This document shows positions 2,909 through 48,848 of a stretch of DNA of 64,000 bases, in pieces. The notes below the pieces were generated by a model, which was not told the DNA's origin, did no database searches, and saw only the letters and a program-made list of their open reading frames with translations. This DNA is from Porticoccaceae bacterium (GTDB lineage Bacteria; Pseudomonadota; Gammaproteobacteria; Pseudomonadales; Porticoccaceae): assembly GCA_023229065.1 (NCBI GenBank), contig JALNZZ010000001.1, positions 2,516 through 66,515 on the forward strand. The letters are read 5' to 3'. The position numbers and the translations under genes are program-made. Each line of letters begins with the position of its first letter. Within the stretch, counting starts at the first letter, position 1.

Positions 2909-4128
2909 AGTTCCGCGAGAGTGGCGAGGCGCCGCCGGGAGTCACGCACAAAGGGGTTGGCGGTGTCCCAGGCGTACCCGGCCAGGATGGAAGCGATCAT
3001 TGCCCGCACCTGTGGCTGGTGATTGGCAGCGAAGATCACTTTTTGGAAGCTGCCGTCGTACCAGCCGCTGACATAGGTGCGGAAGGTTTCTACACCCAGG
3101 CGCAAGGGCTCGGCATACTCTTGTTCCCAGTCGATGTGCTCGCCGCGCAGTTGACGAGCCACCAGAGGGGTAGCGAGGCTGGCGGATTTCATCGCGATGG
3201 TGACGCCAGAAGAAAACACCGGGTCGAGAAACTCGCCAGCATTCCCCAGCAGGGCGAAGCCGGGGCCCCACAGCGACTTGACCTTGCAGGCATAACCGCC
3301 GATCTGCCGCACCTGGGTATCAAACACAGCGTTGTTGAGCAGTGCAGATAGGTCCGGGCTCTCGGCGAGAGCGCTCTGCAGGACACTGAGCAACTGATCC
3401 TCGGCACCCTCGTCAGTGTAGTAATCCTGGCGTGCTACCACCCCTACCGAGCAGCGACCATCGCTGAAGGGGATAAGCCAGTACCAGACATCATCGAGGT
3501 CGGGGTGGATCACGATCAAAATCTTGTCTCTGTCGTGCTTGGGATCGCTGATATTGTCGGCAATATGGGTGAACACGGCTCTGCGCACGGGGAAGTCGGA
3601 GGGCAGCTCCAGGTCCAGCAGGCGTGGCAACACGCGCCCAAAGCCAGATGCATCAAGCACGAACCCGGCGCGCAGTTGATGGGGCTCGTTGCGGTCGTCA
3701 CGATAGCTCAGTACCGGCTGCCCGTCTTCGTAATGGAAGGCTTCGAGGCGGTGACCGTAGCGTACATCGGCGCCTGAGGCGGCAGCTTCGTTGGCCAGGA
3801 CATGGTCGAAGCGGGCGCGCTGAACCTGGAAGGTAGTACCCGGCCCACTGCTGAACTTGTCGCGGAAGTCAAAGGCGGTGTAGTTGCCGCTGCGCACAAA
3901 AGCGGCGCCATTCTTGTACTGAAAGCCGGCCTGATCGACAGCCTCCCCCATGCCTGCTTCGTGGATGAACTCCATGCATTGGGGCAGCAGGCTTTCACCG
4001 ATGGAGAAGCGGGGAAAGGTGGCCTGCTCAAGCACCACTACTTTTAGGCCTTGTTGGCGCAGCAGAGCCGCAGCAATAGCACCGGAAGGACCGGCGCCGA
4101 TAATGGCAACATCGGTTGTTTCAGTCAT
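2899..4128 (-). CDS. flavin-dependent halogenase-like FAD monooxygenase
   Basis: N-terminal GAGPSGAIAA dinucleotide fold, FPRFSIGESLLPQ motif, and WYWLIP (WxWxIP signature, nt 3469-3486). 409 aa. ATGA overlap with the MMPL gene stop. Confidence 0.8.
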   Translation of the reverse strand: MTETTDVAIIGAGPSGAIAAALLRQQGLKVVVLEQATFPRFSIGESLLPQCMEFIHEAGMGEAVDQAGFQYKNGAAFVRSGNYTAFDFRDKFSSGPGTTFQVQRARFDHVLANEAAASGADVRYGHRLEAFHYEDGQPVLSYRDDRNEPHQLRAGFVLDASGFGRVLPRLLDLELPSDFPVRRAVFTHIADNISDPKHDRDKILIVIHPDLDDVWYWLIPFSDGRCSVGVVARQDYYTDEGAEDQLLSVLQSALAESPDLSALLNNAVFDTQVRQIGGYACKVKSLWGPGFALLGNAGEFLDPVFSSGVTIAMKSASLATPLVARQLRGEHIDWEQEYAEPLRLGVETFRTYVSGWYDGSFQKVIFAANHQPQVRAMIASILAGYAWDTANPFVRDSRRRLATLAELCR

Positions 4129-36087: not shown

Positions 36088-36855
36088 ATGGGTGATGGGG
36101 CGAAGCTGACGGGTGCCAAGGGTTTTCACTGGCGGATCAACTGGCTGATACTGGTCTTTGCCGGCATATTTTTGCCTCTCACCCTTGCACTCGGCTATTG
36201 GCAGCTGGGCCGTGCAGAGGAAAAGACAGCCTTGCTCGCGGCCAGCCTGGCCAATGAGCTGGCGCCACCTGTAACACTGGCAGAGCTGAGTCGCGCAGAA
36301 GATTACAATTATCGTCGTGTGCAGGTCAGTGGCTCCTTCGACAATCAACGTACGATATTGTTGCAGAATCGGGTACGCAACGGCCTGCCAGGGTATGAGG
36401 TTGTCGAGCCTTTCCAGGAGGCCAGGAGTGGCCGCTGGCTGCTGGTGAATCGTGGTTGGCTGCCCGGTGCAGCGGGTAACAAACCGCCGCTGGTTGTACC
36501 GGTAGAAGGCAAAGTATTGCTCAGTGGTCATCTTTACCGTTCACTGGGAGAACCCTTCACTCTCGGTGAAGAGCAGTGGCGTGAGGGCTGGCCGCAGGTG
36601 CTGCAAAATCTTGAAACTGAAGCGCTGGCTGAACGCCTGGGTGTGGTCCTCTATCCCTATACCTTAAGACTGGATATAGAGTCGCCCGGTGCTCTGACAG
36701 TAGGTTGGCCGAAAGTTAATATTCAACCGGAAAAGCATCGAGCCTATGCCGTCCAGTGGTTTGCTATGGCTGCTGCACTGGTGATGTTGTCCGTTTTTGC
36801 GAATTCAAACCTGGGCGAAGTGATTCGCCGCGTATGGAGAAGACCTAATGAGTGA
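36088..36855 (+). CDS. SURF1-family cytochrome oxidase biogenesis protein
   Basis: N-terminal TM then LGYWQLGRAEEK, VNRGWLP, and a C-terminal TM with HRAYAVQWFAMA. Confidence 0.85.
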   Translation: MGDGAKLTGAKGFHWRINWLILVFAGIFLPLTLALGYWQLGRAEEKTALLAASLANELAPPVTLAELSRAEDYNYRRVQVSGSFDNQRTILLQNRVRNGLPGYEVVEPFQEARSGRWLLVNRGWLPGAAGNKPPLVVPVEGKVLLSGHLYRSLGEPFTLGEEQWREGWPQVLQNLETEALAERLGVVLYPYTLRLDIESPGALTVGWPKVNIQPEKHRAYAVQWFAMAAALVMLSVFANSNLGEVIRRVWRRPNE

Positions 36856-43242: not shown

Positions 43243-43321
43243 GAAACGGTGCCGTCGGCCGGGTTAGCGAAGCCTCTTCGGTGATGGTGTATCCTTAGTG
43301 TCATTGCCACAAGGATTTTCC

Positions 43322-46042
43322 ATGACCACAGACGACAATGCTCCGCTGGTGCTGGTTGACGGCTCCTCCTACTTGTACCGCGCTTTTCATGCCCTGCCAC
43401 CCTTGACCAGCTCCAAAGGGCAGCCTACGGGGGCGGTCAAAGGTGTGATCGCTATGCTCAAGCGCCTTGCCAAGGATTATCAGGGCAGCACCCTGGTAGT
43501 GGTTTTCGATGCCAAGGGAAAGACCTTTCGCGACGAGCTCTTCGAACAGTACAAATCCCATCGCCCACCGATGCCCGATGATCTGCGCAGCCAGATCGAG
43601 CCGATCCACGCTATCGTTCGCGGCATGGGCCTACCGTTGCTGATTATCGACGGCGTCGAGGCAGACGATGTTATTGGCACCCTCGCCTGCCAGCATGCTC
43701 GCGAGGGCAAGTCGGTGGTGATCTCCACGGGCGATAAGGACATGGCTCAGCTGGTGGAGGAACGCATTACGCTGGTCAACACCATGACGGATACTCGTCT
43801 TGACCGCGATGGGGTGGTAGAAAAATTCGGGGTGCCCCCGGAGCTGATCATCGATTACCTGGCTCTGGTTGGCGACAAGTCCGACAATATTCCCGGGGTG
43901 CCGGGGGTGGGCGAAAAAACGGCCCTGGCGCTGCTGCAGAATCTGGGGGGGCTGGATGTCATTTACGGCGATCTGGAAGCGGTGCGCAACCTCGATTTTC
44001 GCGGTGCCAAAAAAATGCCGGAAAAGCTCGCCGAGCACCGTGAGCAGGCCTATCTTTCCTATCAGCTGGCGACCATCAAAACCGATGTCGAGCTTGATGA
44101 AGACTCCGCCAGTTTGGCCCCGGCTGCGCCGGACAAGCAGCGTCTTGTCGAACTGTTTCTCGATCTGGAGTTCAAGGCGTGGAGTGATGAGCTGCTGGCT
44201 GATGAAGAGGTCAGCGCGAGCCAGCCTGCGCTTGCAAAGGACTGGCAGACCATCCTGGACAAGGAATCCTTCGAAACCTGGCTCGAACGCCTGAAGCGGG
44301 CACCATTGTTTGCTTTCGATACCGAAACCACCAGTCTGAACTACATGGAGGCGGAGCTGGTGGGCCTCTCTTTTGCCGTCCAGCCCCATGAAGCAGCTTA
44401 TGTGCCATTGGGCCACGACTATCTGGGCGCCCCACCCCAGCTGGATCGCCAGTGGGTACTGGAGCGTCTCAAGCCCCTGTTGGAGGACGCCAATCACCAC
44501 AAGCTGGGCCAAAACCTCAAGTACGATACCAGTGTGCTTGCGCGCCATGGCATCAAGTTGCGCGGAGTGGTTTTCGACACCATGCTGGAGTCCTATGTGC
44601 TGGACTCCACCGCTACCCGCCACGATATGGACAGCCTGGCCCTCAAGTATCTGGGTGAGAAAACGATTCACTTTACAGATATCGCCGGCAAAGGCGTGGG
44701 ACAGCTGACCTTCAACCAGGTTTCTCTGGAGGAGGCTGCTCCCTACGCAGCCGAAGATGCGGATATTACCTTGCGCTTGCATCAAGCCTTGTGGCCCCGT
44801 CTCGAAGAGATACCGTCGTTGCGCAAGGTGTTCGAGACCATTGAAATGCCGCTGATGCCTGTGCTGTCTCGCATCGAGCGCAATGGCGCCCGCGTTGATG
44901 CTGCGCTGCTCAAGAAACAGGGTGACGAAATTGCCACTCGCCTCGACGAGCTCGAGCGGGAGGCACATGAGCTGGCGGGACAGTCCTTTAACCTGGCTTC
45001 CCCCAAGCAGCTGGGGGAAGTGCTCTTCGACAAGCTGAAGATCCCGGTGTTGAAGAAAACGGCCACCGGGGCTCCGTCCACAAAAGAAGAAGTGCTTCAG
45101 GAGTTGGCGCTGGATTATCCCTTGCCGCGCTTGCTCCTTGAGCACCGCGGGTTGGCCAAGCTCAAATCCACCTATATCGACAAGCTGCCACGCATGGTCA
45201 ACCCGGCTACCGGACGCGTCCACACCTCCTACCACCAGGCCGGGACGGCCACCGGACGGCTGTCGTCCTCTGACCCCAATCTGCAGAATATCCCTGTTCG
45301 CAGTGCCGAGGGACGCCGTATCCGCCAAGCGTTTGTGGCCGACAAGGGTAATTTGATCTTGGCGGCAGACTACTCACAGATCGAACTGCGCATCATGGCG
45401 CATCTGTCTGGTGACGAGAGCCTGCTGCAGGCCTTCCGCGATGGGCTCGACATCCACCGGGCCACTGCGGCGGAAGTATTTGAAACCCCGCTCGACAAGG
45501 TTACCCAGGACCAGCGTCGCAGTGCCAAAGCGATTAATTTTGGCCTGATCTACGGCATGTCAGCCTTTGGGTTAGCACGTCAACTGCACTTGGGGCGCAA
45601 CCAGGCGCAGGAGTATATCGATCTCTATTTTGCCCGTTACCCGGGCGTCGCTGCCTATATGGAGAACACCCGGCAGCAGGCTCGCGAACAGGGTTTTGTG
45701 GAAACGCTCTTCGGGCGCAGGCTCTACCTGCCTGATATCAAGGCTGGCAAGGGCCAGCTGAGGCAAGCGGCCGAGCGCACCGCGATCAATGCCCCCATGC
45801 AGGGTACTGCCGCAGATATCATCAAGCGAGCCATGATCAGTGTCGATGACTGGCTGACGGAGCAGGGGCTGGCTACCCGCATGATTATGCAGGTGCATGA
45901 TGAGCTGGTGTTTGAAGTGCCGGAGAAAGAGCTGGACACTGTTCACGATGAGGTGAGCCGCCGGATGGCCGCCGCTGCAGAACTAGCTGTGCCGCTGGTA
46001 GTGGAAGTAGGCAGCGGACTCAATTGGGATGAGGCGCATTAA
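43322..46042 (+). CDS. polA: DNA polymerase I
   Basis: 5-prime nuclease N-terminus ([14 protein letters not shown]), 3-5 exo FDTETT, polymerase motifs DYSQIELR and QVHDELVFE. Confidence 0.97.
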
Positions 46043-46335
46043 AGACCTTTCTGACCATGGTCGAAACCCTTGGAAAGCAATCACTGGTGCCGTGGAACCA
46101 AGCGCATTTCTCTGGTTCAGAGTAAGCGCAGCCTTGGTAAACTGTGTTCACCGGTTCTTCGCCTTGCTTGTTTAGCCTTGTTCCGCGTTATTTGAAGTAT
46201 GGATGCTCTGGTCTCTCCTCTCTTTGGGGTAGGTTGTTTTTCCTTTTATATCAGTTGCTTGGGTGTAAAAGATCAGTGTGGAATAGCAAGAAAAGCAGGG
46301 TGAAGAAAATAATTTTCATTTTTTGAGAATTTATT

Positions 46336-46362
46336 GAACTTTAGGGATAAGGACCGGTCTGA
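46336..46362 (+). promoter_or_regulatory. sigmaE/AlgU-type (ECF) promoter
   Basis: GAACTT (46336-46341), a 16-nt spacer, then TCTGA (46358-46362). This is an exact match to the remembered AlgU/RpoE consensus GAACTT-N16/17-TCTGA. Confidence 0.6.
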
Positions 46363-46368
46363 GATAGC

Positions 46369-46465
46369 GGTTAGTGTTTCCTCTTCGTTGTGAGCAAACC
46401 GGGAACCCTCTCCCCTCTTGGCAATCCCGGTTCTTCTGCCGGCGCACCTTGCGCCGGCTTTTTTA
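46369..46465 (+). ncRNA. candidate ~100-nt sRNA in the polA-engB spacer (ErsA/Spot 42 genomic position)
   Basis: Begins a few nt after the ECF promoter. Internal hairpin AACCGGGA (46397-46404) / TCCCGGTT (46425-46432) with a C/U-rich loop. Ends in an intrinsic terminator. No plausible ORF. The 5-prime end is predicted only. Confidence 0.55.
46438..46464 (+). terminator. Rho-independent terminator
   Basis: GCCGGCGC-acctt-GCGCCGGC followed by TTTTTT. It lies about 400 nt after the polA stop, so it is unlikely to be the polA terminator. Confidence 0.8.
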
Positions 46466-46499
46466 TCTCCCCGTTTTGCCTTCTCGCTTTTCCTGTTTT

Positions 46500-47123
46500 C
46501 TACAGGCTCTGTTCAAGCCATTGATTCATAAAGGCTTCAAGCTCGCTAAGCCCCTGTTTTTTGAGGGCTGAAAAAAGTTGCACGGACACGTGGTCGATTC
46601 CGGCGTCGGCCAGTTGCCGGCGTACTTTAAGAAGCTCGTTGCTGGCGGGGCCATGATTGAGTTTGTCGGCCTTGGTAAGCAGAATATGCAGGGGCAGGTG
46701 ACCGGCCTGGGCCCAGCGGATCATTTGCCAGTCGTACTCCTGTAGCGGATGGCGAATATCCATCAGCAATACCAATCCCTTCAGGGATTGGCGTTGCTGG
46801 AGGTATTCCGCCAGGTGCTTGTCCCAGTCACTTTTCACGGCTTTTGATACCTTGGCAAAGCCGTAGCCTGGCAGGTCCACCAGGCGGCGTCCCGGTCCAA
46901 GGCTGAAAAAGTTGATCAGTTGAGTGCGCCCAGGGGTCTTGCTGGTGCGCGCCAACTTGCTTTGACGGGTCAGCGTATTGATGGCGCTGGACTTTCCGGC
47001 GTTGGAGCGGCCGGCAAAGGCGACTTCTGCGCCTGTGTCCGTTGGACATTGGTGCAGTGTGGGCGCACTTTGCATGAAAGTGGCAGTGGCGAAATTGATG
47101 GCTTCAGTCATAGCTTTACTCAT
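46500..47123 (-). CDS. engB: ribosome biogenesis GTPase YihA/EngB
   Basis: G1 [15 protein letters not shown] and LTKADK motifs. 207 aa. Confidence 0.93.
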
Positions 47124-47281: not shown

Positions 47282-47923
47282 ATGATGAAAACTGCGAGTG
47301 GTTTAGCCTTTGTCCTGTCCCTCATGATCGCCCCTTTTGCCATGGCCGCAGGGGATGCCAAAGCTGGTGAAGGCAAGACCGCTGTCTGTGTCGCCTGTCA
47401 CTCGAGCGACGGCAACAGCCCCTCCCCGGCTTTCCCCAAACTGGCTGGCCTCGGCGAGAAGTATTTGCTCAAGCAGTTGAAGGATATCCAGTCGGGCGCC
47501 CGTCCAGTACTCGAAATGACAGGTATGCTCAATGGTTTTAACGAGCAGGATCTAGCAGACATCGCTGCTTACTACAACTCTCAAACCCGCCAGATGGCGG
47601 GTGCCAAGGACGTCAAGCTGGATCTTGGCGAGCGTATCTATCGCGGCGGTAACATTGCTACCGGCGTGGCAGCTTGTATCGGCTGTCATGCTCCCAGCGG
47701 TAATGGCAACGCTCCCGCAGGTTATCCGGCTCTCGGCGGCCAATATGCCGACTATATCGCCAAGCAGTTGCGCGCTTTCCGCACTGCTGCCCATGATGAA
47801 GAAGATGCCAGCGGCCGCGACAACGATGGTGAGCCCGCCATGATGCGCGGTGTCGCTGCTCGTATGACCGATCAGGAGATCGACGCTGTAGCCAACTACA
47901 TTGCGGGTCTCAAGGGTAACTAG
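47282..47923 (+). CDS. diheme cytochrome c4
   Basis: Signal peptide plus two heme motifs, CVACH and CIGCH. 213 aa. Position between engB and dsbA as in Pseudomonas. Confidence 0.9.
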   Translation: MMKTASGLAFVLSLMIAPFAMAAGDAKAGEGKTAVCVACHSSDGNSPSPAFPKLAGLGEKYLLKQLKDIQSGARPVLEMTGMLNGFNEQDLADIAAYYNSQTRQMAGAKDVKLDLGERIYRGGNIATGVAACIGCHAPSGNGNAPAGYPALGGQYADYIAKQLRAFRTAAHDEEDASGRDNDGEPAMMRGVAARMTDQEIDAVANYIAGLKGN

Positions 47924-47954
47924 GGCAGGCCTGAAGTCCAGCTGATAATGAATC

Positions 47955-47982
47955 AAAAAGGCGGCCTGGTGCCGCCTTTTTT
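47955..47982 (+). terminator. Rho-independent terminator after cytochrome c4
   Basis: AAAAAG-GGCGGC-ctggt-GCCGCC-TTTTTT. Confidence 0.8.
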
Positions 47983-48122
47983 GTGTTTAGCCGGTAAGGA
48001 AGCTGGCCCGGCAGGTCAGAAAGCCGCTAAATCGGCTAACAGGCGGCTTACTTTTGTGTAAACTCTCGGTGCGTACCGCCGACCGGTGGGCACCTGGTCA
48101 AGATAGATAACCTGGAGCAGAC

Positions 48123-48848
48123 ATGCAGAATCTCACCAAGTGGATATTCCCTTTTTTGATCGTCTTTGCCCTTGGCTGCCAGGCCGAGCAGGACAGTGCT
48201 CAGGCGACGGCCGCTGCGCCCCCAGCCGAGGCCCCGGTCTCTGCCACCATTGATGCCAAGCCAGCTTCATCTGCCTCTGCCAACTATGTGGCTGGCACTC
48301 ACTACGAAGTACTGCCACAACCCGTGCCCACTGCCGACCCCAGCAAGATCGAAGTTGCCGAAGTGTTTTGGTACGGTTGTGGTCACTGTTATGACTTCGA
48401 GCCCCTGTTCGAGTCCTGGGCGGAGAACTTGCCCGCTGATGTAGCGGTGGTGCGCAGCCCTGCCATGTGGGATCAGCAGGGTATCATGGAGCGCCATGCC
48501 CGGATCTATTACACAGCGAAGGCTCTGGGTGTGTTCGACGAAGTGCATATGGCGACCTTCGAGGCAATGAACCTGCACCGCAACCAGCTGCAAACGGAGG
48601 AGGCCATTGCCAAGCTGTTTGAAGAGAAAGGGGTGAGCCGGGAGGACTTCGACAAAACTTTCAACTCTTTCGGAGTCACCAGCGCCGTCAAGCAGGCCGA
48701 GTCGCGGTTGCGAGGCTACCGCACCCAGGGCACACCGGAAGTGGTGATCAATGGTACCTACCGGGTAAGTAGCCGCCTGGCGGGGGGGCACCAGGACATG
48801 CTCAATGTCTCCAGCTTCCTGATCGAGAAGATCCGCAGCGAGCAATAA
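48123..48848 (+). CDS. dsbA: thiol:disulfide oxidoreductase DsbA with extended N-terminal linker
   Basis: The FWYGCGHCYDFEP CxxC active site sits in a thioredoxin fold. The N-terminus has signal peptide FLIVFALGC followed by an Ala/Pro-rich ~40-aa low-complexity stretch. Confidence 0.88.
   Translation: MQNLTKWIFPFLIVFALGCQAEQDSAQATAAAPPAEAPVSATIDAKPASSASANYVAGTHYEVLPQPVPTADPSKIEVAEVFWYGCGHCYDFEPLFESWAENLPADVAVVRSPAMWDQQGIMERHARIYYTAKALGVFDEVHMATFEAMNLHRNQLQTEEAIAKLFEEKGVSREDFDKTFNSFGVTSAVKQAESRLRGYRTQGTPEVVINGTYRVSSRLAGGHQDMLNVSSFLIEKIRSEQ

Follow-up and report, generated by a model that had tools for sequence, protein, structure and literature searches.

A predicted sigma-E-type small RNA gene between polA and engB in Porticoccaceae-like gammaproteobacteria, sharing its position, but not its sequence family, with ErsA and Spot 42

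The sigma-E-dependent small RNAs (sRNAs) MicA, RybB and MicL of the Enterobacteriaceae and VrrA and MicV of Vibrio act as the repressing branch of the envelope-stress response, and sRNAs of this class have been studied in few model genera only. Two described sRNAs, Spot 42 (gene spf) in Escherichia coli and ErsA in Pseudomonas aeruginosa, are encoded in the spacer between polA and engB (yihA in E. coli), and the Spot 42 promoter is of the sigma-70 type and repressed by CRP. Here we compare with these systems the polA-engB spacer of a 64,000-nucleotide (nt) stretch of DNA from a Porticoccaceae bacterium (GenBank assembly GCA_023229065.1, contig JALNZZ010000001.1, positions 2,516 to 66,515), which is referred to as the window, and in which an initial annotation had suspected an ErsA-like sRNA. 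The spacer very probably holds a real, conserved and unannotated regulatory RNA gene of about 97 nt with a sigma-E/AlgU-type promoter. The predicted RNA, called B in the following, is best regarded as representing a new family of the established sigma-E-dependent sRNA class, and belongs to neither the ErsA nor the Spot 42 family.

ErsA is reported to regulate algC, oprD, amrZ, anr, mlaA and fleN in an Hfq-dependent manner, and its published interaction region is U/G-rich and unstructured (nt 26-56, ..CUCCUUUGCAGUGUUUAGUGUUGGCAGAU..). In the repression of mlaA, which needs Hfq, a CCU motif of ErsA pairs with the ribosome-binding site, and the pairing is abolished by changing CCU to GGA (PMC13613067). 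Literature searches turned up no ErsA homologue described from a genus other than Pseudomonas. Two P. aeruginosa-type ErsA loci were retrieved from metagenomes by means of published ErsA primers (PMC8575079, Table S2), which gave the 5' end of the RNA, located in locus L083. There, the polA stop codon (3078-3080) is followed by GAACTT-N17-TCAGA (3171-3198) and by ErsA, which starts at 3204 (CGAAUGG), 6 nt past the -10 element, and ends with a terminator and U8 at about 3335 on the + strand; engB follows on the - strand from 3344. The position of ErsA and its orientation along polA are thus as the initial annotation had described them for P. aeruginosa, and the annotation of E. coli MG1655 (L096) likewise places spf between polA and yihA.

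The features of the window locus are listed in Table 1. The motif GAACTT-N16-TCTGA (46336-46362), the hairpin with a C/U-rich loop and the terminator with T6 that the initial annotation had pointed out all lie where it had placed them. The hairpin is present in the computed fold, and a terminator scan of 45900-46700 returned a single terminator, on the + strand, with 9 pairs of which 8 are G-C. Since ErsA starts 6 nt past its -10 element, the +1 of B was placed at C46368, which gives a predicted length of 97 nt. When folded as a 98-nt RNA, the sequence forms two hairpins with a minimum free energy (MFE) of -34.7 kcal/mol (z=-3.2), a value that none of 200 shuffled sequences equalled. The block 5' of the first hairpin is unpaired in both the MFE and the centroid structures, except for one weak helix, and the hairpin itself displays a C/U-rich loop of 20 nt (46405-46424, ACCCUCUCCCCUCUUGGCAA) carrying the invariant motif CUCCCCUCUUGG, which is a second candidate seed.

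Table 1. Coordinates of the predicted sRNA gene B, its promoter, the decayed upstream copy A and the flanking genes in the window
Feature	Position	Strand	Evidence or remark
Predicted sRNA, B family, 97 nt	46368..46464	+	Matched over its full length by covariance models R1 (130 bits) and R2 (115.9 bits)
-35 hexamer GAACTT	46336..46341	+	Invariant in 11/11 B-family copies; same as the ErsA -35 in L083
-10 element TCTGA, 16 nt past the -35	46358..46362	+	TCTGA, TCTCA or TCATA in 11/11 copies, usually with GG before
A/T-rich stretch 5' of the -35, UP-element-like	46304..46335	+	GC content 0.32 over 46250-46349
Unpaired 5' block CUCUUCGUUGUGAGCA, candidate seed 1, with anti-Shine-Dalgarno-like CCUCUU	46381..46396	+	Invariant or near-invariant alignment columns (A1, A4)
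Internal hairpin, 8-bp stem AACCGGGA (46397-46404)/UCCCGGUU (46425-46432)	46397..46432	+	Fold and covariation
U-rich linker CUUCU between hairpin and terminator	46433..46437	+	Letters vary, U-rich in all copies (e.g. UUUUUAGGUUA in L087)
Intrinsic terminator GCCGGCGC-ACCUU-GCGCCGGC (46438-46458) and U6 (46459-46464)	46438..46464	+	Terminator scan
Sigma-E-like promoter remnant of A, GAACCA-N16-TCAGA	46095..46121	+	GAACCA -35 also in the nearest relative L084, before an intact A
Decayed body of A, likely pseudo-sRNA	46127..46249	+	Aligns to A of L084 (z=14.7)
polA (DNA polymerase I), upstream flank	43298..46042	+	914-aa open reading frame; Pfam DNA_pol_A (E=2e-168) and both exonuclease domains
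engB/yihA (ribosome-biogenesis GTPase), convergent downstream flank	46500..47123	-	207-aa open reading frame; Pfam MMR_HSR1

Relatives of the window EngB were used to assemble the loci with which the spacer was compared (80 species-level loci and 19 around closer EngB proteins, cited by their L numbers where needed). Homologues of B occupy an equal place in equal orientation in the window, L084/85, L086, L087-90, L091, L092 (two copies), L093, L002, L003, L005 and L101, which amounts to 12 full-length copies in Porticoccaceae-like relatives, plus one cut by a contig end. All of these copies come from metagenome contigs or metagenome-assembled genomes. Covariance models were built from 3 sequences (R1) and rebuilt from 11 (R2). 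With R2, the members score at least 69.7 bits, while everything else in 532 kb stays at or below 23 bits; the window sequence is part of the seed alignment, so that its own R1 and R2 scores are circular, but those of the other copies are not. Between the window and L084, the B sequences show 1 difference over 97 aligned positions. A weak R1 match on the - strand of the window (36477-36566, 16 bits, E=0.11) was rejected, as it lies inside a coding sequence and has no terminator. It can also be noted that in L093 (2115-2318) the 3' neighbour of engB is not polA but a gene for a FemAB-like acetyltransferase, and that the B-type gene and its promoter are still there; B therefore appears to travel with engB and not with polA.

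The predicted structure is conserved along with the sequence. In a plain MAFFT alignment the hairpin had its 3' arm misplaced; a model-guided alignment was used instead, in which 98.3% of the helix cells form standard pairs, compared with 30-53% in controls with the partners shifted by 1-3 columns. Both sides are changed in six of the 16 pairs, and the combined values for pairing and double changes were not reached in any of 500 column shuffles. Considered separately, helix 1 (the internal hairpin) has 97.7% of its cells paired and 4 of its 8 pairs changed on both sides, and helix 2 (the terminator) has 98.9% of its cells paired and 2 such pairs. The highest conservation is nevertheless found in the unpaired 5' block and in the loop motif, above that of the stems, as one would expect of seeds for base pairing.

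The putative promoter of B shows a clear phylogenetic footprint. In all of the 11 homologues examined, GAACTT, the exact 16-nt spacing and TCNNA are retained, while the letters of the spacer and the flanks drift freely, and most B-family promoters have a block of A- and T-runs (AAAAAATTTCAAnTTTTTTG-like) at the equivalent place. The motif GAACTT-N16-TCTGA has no second match in the 128 kb formed by both strands of the window. Relaxed versions would be expected there about 0.6 times by chance, and an exact match over the 11 bases, by simple arithmetic, about 0.03 times. Taken from the window alone, the motif would be weakly significant and not compelling by itself; it is its conservation in relatives that makes the element more than a chance occurrence. 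The distribution of the strict pattern (GAACTT-N15-17-TCNNA) was also determined for 40 species with convergent polA and engB. In their spacers (14.3 kb), 19 occurrences lie on the polA strand and none on the opposite one, and the remaining 206 kb on two strands (412 kb) contain two. Among the spacers of at least 150 nt, 15 of 29 carry the strict motif and 21 of 29 a version with a relaxed -35, and each spacer motif is followed by about 85-150 nt closing in a terminator. B has an extracytoplasmic function (ECF) sigma-E consensus promoter directly 5' of a predicted short non-coding RNA with an intrinsic terminator, which is the arrangement of the sigma-E sRNA class. The independent sRNA gene with a sigma-E/AlgU-type promoter proposed initially therefore stands at the sequence level, with the motif in 11/11 homologues and compensated stems.

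That such a gene would have escaped annotation was also correct: no Rfam family covers B, and no Rfam model matches anywhere in the window at its gathering threshold. Spot 42 resembles B in lying between polA and yihA/engB on the same strand (in MG1655, polA and spf are on the + strand and yihA on the -), and in being a terminator-ended RNA of about 100 nt. The two differ in sequence. The Spot_42 model (RF00021) has no match at E≤10 in the 561-nt spacer of the window, B aligns with E. coli spf (L096 3400-3510) no better than shuffled sequences do (z=-0.7), and R2 has no match on L096. They also differ in the promoter, since no sigma-70-like site was found by a promoter scan of 45900-46700, the sigma-E-type motif being there instead. 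MicA, RybB, MicL, VrrA and MicV are like B in that an ECF sigma-E promoter precedes a short RNA of the Hfq type whose unpaired seeds are conserved, but they have no Rfam match in the window, carry other seeds and belong to other taxa than B, which is found in Porticoccaceae-like Cellvibrionales. A few further candidates were discarded. In a permissive scan of the 561-nt spacer, PrrF reached 21.6 bits (gathering threshold 90) and GadY and ncS035 scored lower, which can be ascribed to chance and to a generic shape of hairpin plus terminator; sub-threshold matches of anti-hemB, OmrA-B and Leu_leader on homologues were taken to be driven by the terminator.

B is not alone in its spacer, as in the clade of the window the spacers hold two sigma-E-type RNA genes in tandem, A upstream and B downstream. 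No published name was found for the A RNA. Intact copies of A have three hairpins with C-rich loops (loop 1 GUUCUCCCA, loop 2 GUUCCCCUUUG, and CCCCUC in the terminator loop), and the terminator loop of ErsA has CCCCUC as in A (CCCCCUCCCC). The ErsA model (RF01719, Pseudomon-1/ErsA), which scores 137.8 bits on L083 for a gathering threshold of 50 bits, reaches 29.5 bits on A (E=6e-4 when 401 nt are scanned), a weak resemblance that is owed chiefly to the terminator and to the 5' CUCC block; in the pairwise comparison of A and ErsA (z=3.4), 3 of 500 shuffles did equally well. The similarity between A and B is marginal (pairwise z=2.25; 14-23 bits for R2 on A). They have in common the promoter type, the strand and the motifs UUCGUUGU and CCCCUC; A differs from B in its three hairpins, in carrying CCCCUC in the terminator loop as ErsA does, and in being decayed in the window, where B is intact. 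The window copy of A has lost the otherwise invariant loop 1 and loop 2 motifs as well as the terminator stem, and it folds with z=+0.5 relative to shuffled sequences, compared with z=-3.35 for A of L084. This loss of motifs and stem and the poor fold, set against the near-identity of B with its L084 counterpart, make A look like a recent pseudo-sRNA and B like a gene under constraint.

The internal hairpin of B is still followed by UUUUU in L087 and L092. Because it has a loop of the A kind and is followed by UUUUU in some copies, this hairpin looks like the old terminator of an ErsA/A-type ancestor, behind which a new GC-rich terminator would have been added. The predicted spacer RNAs differ in sequence by lineage, and unpaired C-runs are common in them. 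In 38 transcripts with sigma-E promoters (ErsA included), there are 74 runs of at least 4 C, compared with 42.4±4.6 in dinucleotide shuffles; 37 of the 38 RNAs have at least one, 54 of the 74 are unpaired in the MFE structures, and G-runs number only 11.

Other arrangements were observed in the same spacer. In L092, the spacer (engB end at 2106 to polA at 2776) has three sigma-E-type sRNA genes, A and two B. In Porticoccus litoralis (L094; L094/L095 2130-2573), an sRNA gene of another type, marked by GAACTA-N16-CCTAA, UUUCUCCCCAAAC and AAUCCCCAAGC, is present twice in tandem. The spacers of Cellvibrio-like metagenome-assembled genomes (MAGs; L008, L029, L035, L038 and L048) contain a further well-conserved RNA type with a sigma-E promoter (GUGUGUUUUAC..CAUGAGCUAACUCCUCCCCUAAUGGC..), which none of the Rfam models matches above threshold and behind which a second RNA with such a promoter is found in some cases. 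As for ErsA, its terminator hairpin loop (CCCCCUCCCCAUAC, L083 3285-3335) is highly conserved in the RF01719 consensus, and CCCCUC is also present in the loops of A and B; no description of a function for this loop was found, the ErsA papers placing the interaction sites in nt 26-56.

Taken together, B is probably a stand-alone trans-acting sRNA gene of the sigma-E type, and the downstream member of a tandem pair which, in a Porticoccaceae-like clade, is located where other bacteria have ErsA or Spot 42. It could instead be a direct orthologue of ErsA that has diverged beyond detection by the models and would share the ErsA regulon (algC, oprD, amrZ, mlaA and others), which we consider unlikely. 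The two RNAs do share the spacer, the polA strand, and a promoter of the form GAACTT-N16/17-TC(T/A)GA with a predicted start about 6 nt past the -10. Both measure about 100-130 nt; their 5' region is unpaired, an internal hairpin follows, and an intrinsic terminator closes the RNA. They further share CCCCUC in a hairpin loop, similar hairpin arms (CCnGGAnC) and CCU-type anti-Shine-Dalgarno (SD) elements. They also have an 8-mer, UUAGUGUU, in common in the 5' unpaired part, but other B copies read UUAAUGU or UUAACGU there, so that the 8-mer is not a constant feature of the family. Neither sequence nor model similarity is significant: RF01719 has no match in the window at its gathering threshold and none at E≤10 in the 561-nt spacer, its score on the B homologue in L091 is 14.9 bits (E=2), R1 and R2 have no match at E≤10 on the ErsA loci, and the local alignment of B and ErsA gives z=0.2, with 202 of 500 shuffles as good. 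By the same local alignment, the U/G-rich interaction region of ErsA has no counterpart in the window B RNA. B further differs in having its C-rich loop in the internal hairpin and not in the terminator, in its separate GC-rich terminator, and in being a member of a tandem pair, of which none is seen in the Pseudomonas locus L083. Orthology is made less likely still by A, which is the more ErsA-like copy. The initial annotation of an ErsA-like sRNA is thus right as to position, strand and promoter type, but not as to membership of the ErsA family; the covariance search that it had suggested, with the ErsA and Spot_42 models, matches neither in the window spacer at E≤10.

The invariant motif displayed in the 20-nt hairpin loop, and the enrichment of unpaired C-runs across the sRNAs of this spacer, would also suit an RNA acting without Hfq through a C-rich loop, in the manner of sX13 of Xanthomonas or of the Gram-positive RsaE-type RNAs, by binding G-rich mRNA motifs or by titrating a G-rich RNA or a protein. 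We regard this as rather doubtful. The sX13 model (RF02232) has no match in the window at its gathering threshold or in the spacer at E≤10, and its only match is sub-threshold, on another spacer RNA (L067, 27.6 bits for a gathering threshold of 50). B moreover has an Hfq-type 3' module (U-rich linker, GC-rich terminator, U-tail of at least 6), and ErsA, its positional counterpart, is Hfq-dependent. It is very improbable that the promoter mainly yields antisense or read-through transcription into engB, or that the element is a 3' untranslated or terminator region of polA without a trans-acting RNA. It is true that only 35 nt separate the end of the terminator from the engB stop codon, and that no other good terminator follows polA, that of the A copy having decayed. 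However, the terminator of B is strong (8 G-C pairs and T6-T9) and maintained by compensatory changes in all copies, conservation peaks in the unpaired blocks and not in the terminator alone, and L093 retains the gene with its own promoter where the neighbour is not polA. Finally, a small protein or a dual function as in Spot 42, whose gene is annotated in E. coli with the 15-aa SpfP open reading frame (ORF; L096 3418-3465), seems hardly conceivable. Mechanical ORFs of 65, 44 and 37 aa with GTG or TTG starts can be drawn inside B, but they run through the terminator into the antisense of engB, and there is no ATG within the window B transcript. Frames, lengths and presence of ORFs vary among the B copies (one has no ORF of at least 25 aa), 1-2 nt insertions or deletions break all frames, and no ORF is conserved, in agreement with the initial view that the stretch had no credible one.

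Some observations weigh against B being a stand-alone trans-acting sRNA gene of this kind. RNAalifold on the plain MAFFT alignment proposes a short alternative helix of 4 bp (GGGA/UCCC) within the hairpin, and the loop may therefore be partly occluded. The compensatory changes come mostly from two divergent copies, L005 and L093, and the pair counts are biased toward the model structure, to which the alignment had been fitted. The family is narrow and confined to one subclade, R2 finding no member at the Porticoccus-like loci L097-L099. Both ends of B and its promoter are predictions. When the two candidate seeds were run against the 64-kb window with RNAduplex in an exploratory scan, no outstanding target was revealed, the only outliers being antisense self-matches and the rest ordinary SD-like or G-rich sites.

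As a stand-alone sRNA, B would be transcribed from its RpoE/AlgU-type (ECF) promoter when the sigma factor is released under envelope stress, as the conserved promoter suggests, and its transcription would end at its own intrinsic terminator, which is evident in the sequence. Two unpaired C/U-rich segments could serve as seeds, one 5' of the hairpin (..CCUCUUCGUUGUGAGCA) and one in its loop (CCCUCUCCCCUCUUGG), by analogy with ErsA, MicA and RybB. Their CCUCUU and CCCUCUCCCCUCUU blocks may pair with purine- or G-rich ribosome-binding regions of mRNAs, probably those for envelope proteins. On the model of the same three RNAs, the pairing would lower translation of the targets, probably with Hfq bound to the module of U-rich linker, terminator and U-tail. 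Among systems studied by experiment, ErsA with its pairing to the mlaA ribosome-binding site comes nearest to this mechanism. A broader scenario is offered more tentatively. The polA-engB spacer may be an ancient and continuously re-used site for envelope-stress sRNAs in Pseudomonas, Cellvibrionales and relatives, in which sigma-E-promoted RNAs with C-rich loops have time and again been duplicated, re-terminated and lost, ErsA being only one descendant. B would then have its own seeds and regulon, its twin C/U blocks damping envelope mRNAs other than those of ErsA, and the decayed A would mark a recent hand-over, by which the new copy took on the function of the ErsA-like one.

With respect to the surroundings of the locus, the relatives of the window EngB are named YihA/YsxC and come mostly from Porticoccaceae. 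An exact match to the protein was obtained only on a 928-nt read-assembly contig. The best species-level relatives are Porticoccaceae MAGs (67-72% identity), and closer ones (76-90% identity) are present in a metagenomic protein collection. Beyond engB, the window has cytochrome c4-like and DsbA-like genes (47282-48848, + strand), and the order polA, sRNA(s), engB, cytochrome c, dsbA is constant in all close relatives.

For a specialist the result is useful but unsurprising, as it brings a gain in annotation and evolutionary detail and not a new kind of system. It adds a well-defined, computationally supported family to the sigma-E-type sRNAs, in Porticoccaceae-like marine gammaproteobacteria that are abundant in the environment and genetically unstudied. 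The position, strand and promoter type of ErsA reach well beyond Pseudomonas, whereas its RNA sequence does not. The locus also provides a concrete case of sRNA gene turnover at a fixed place, with a tandem duplication, a terminator that appears to have become an internal hairpin, and one copy that is decaying. The conserved promoter may be used as a marker of the sigma-E regulon in these uncultured lineages.

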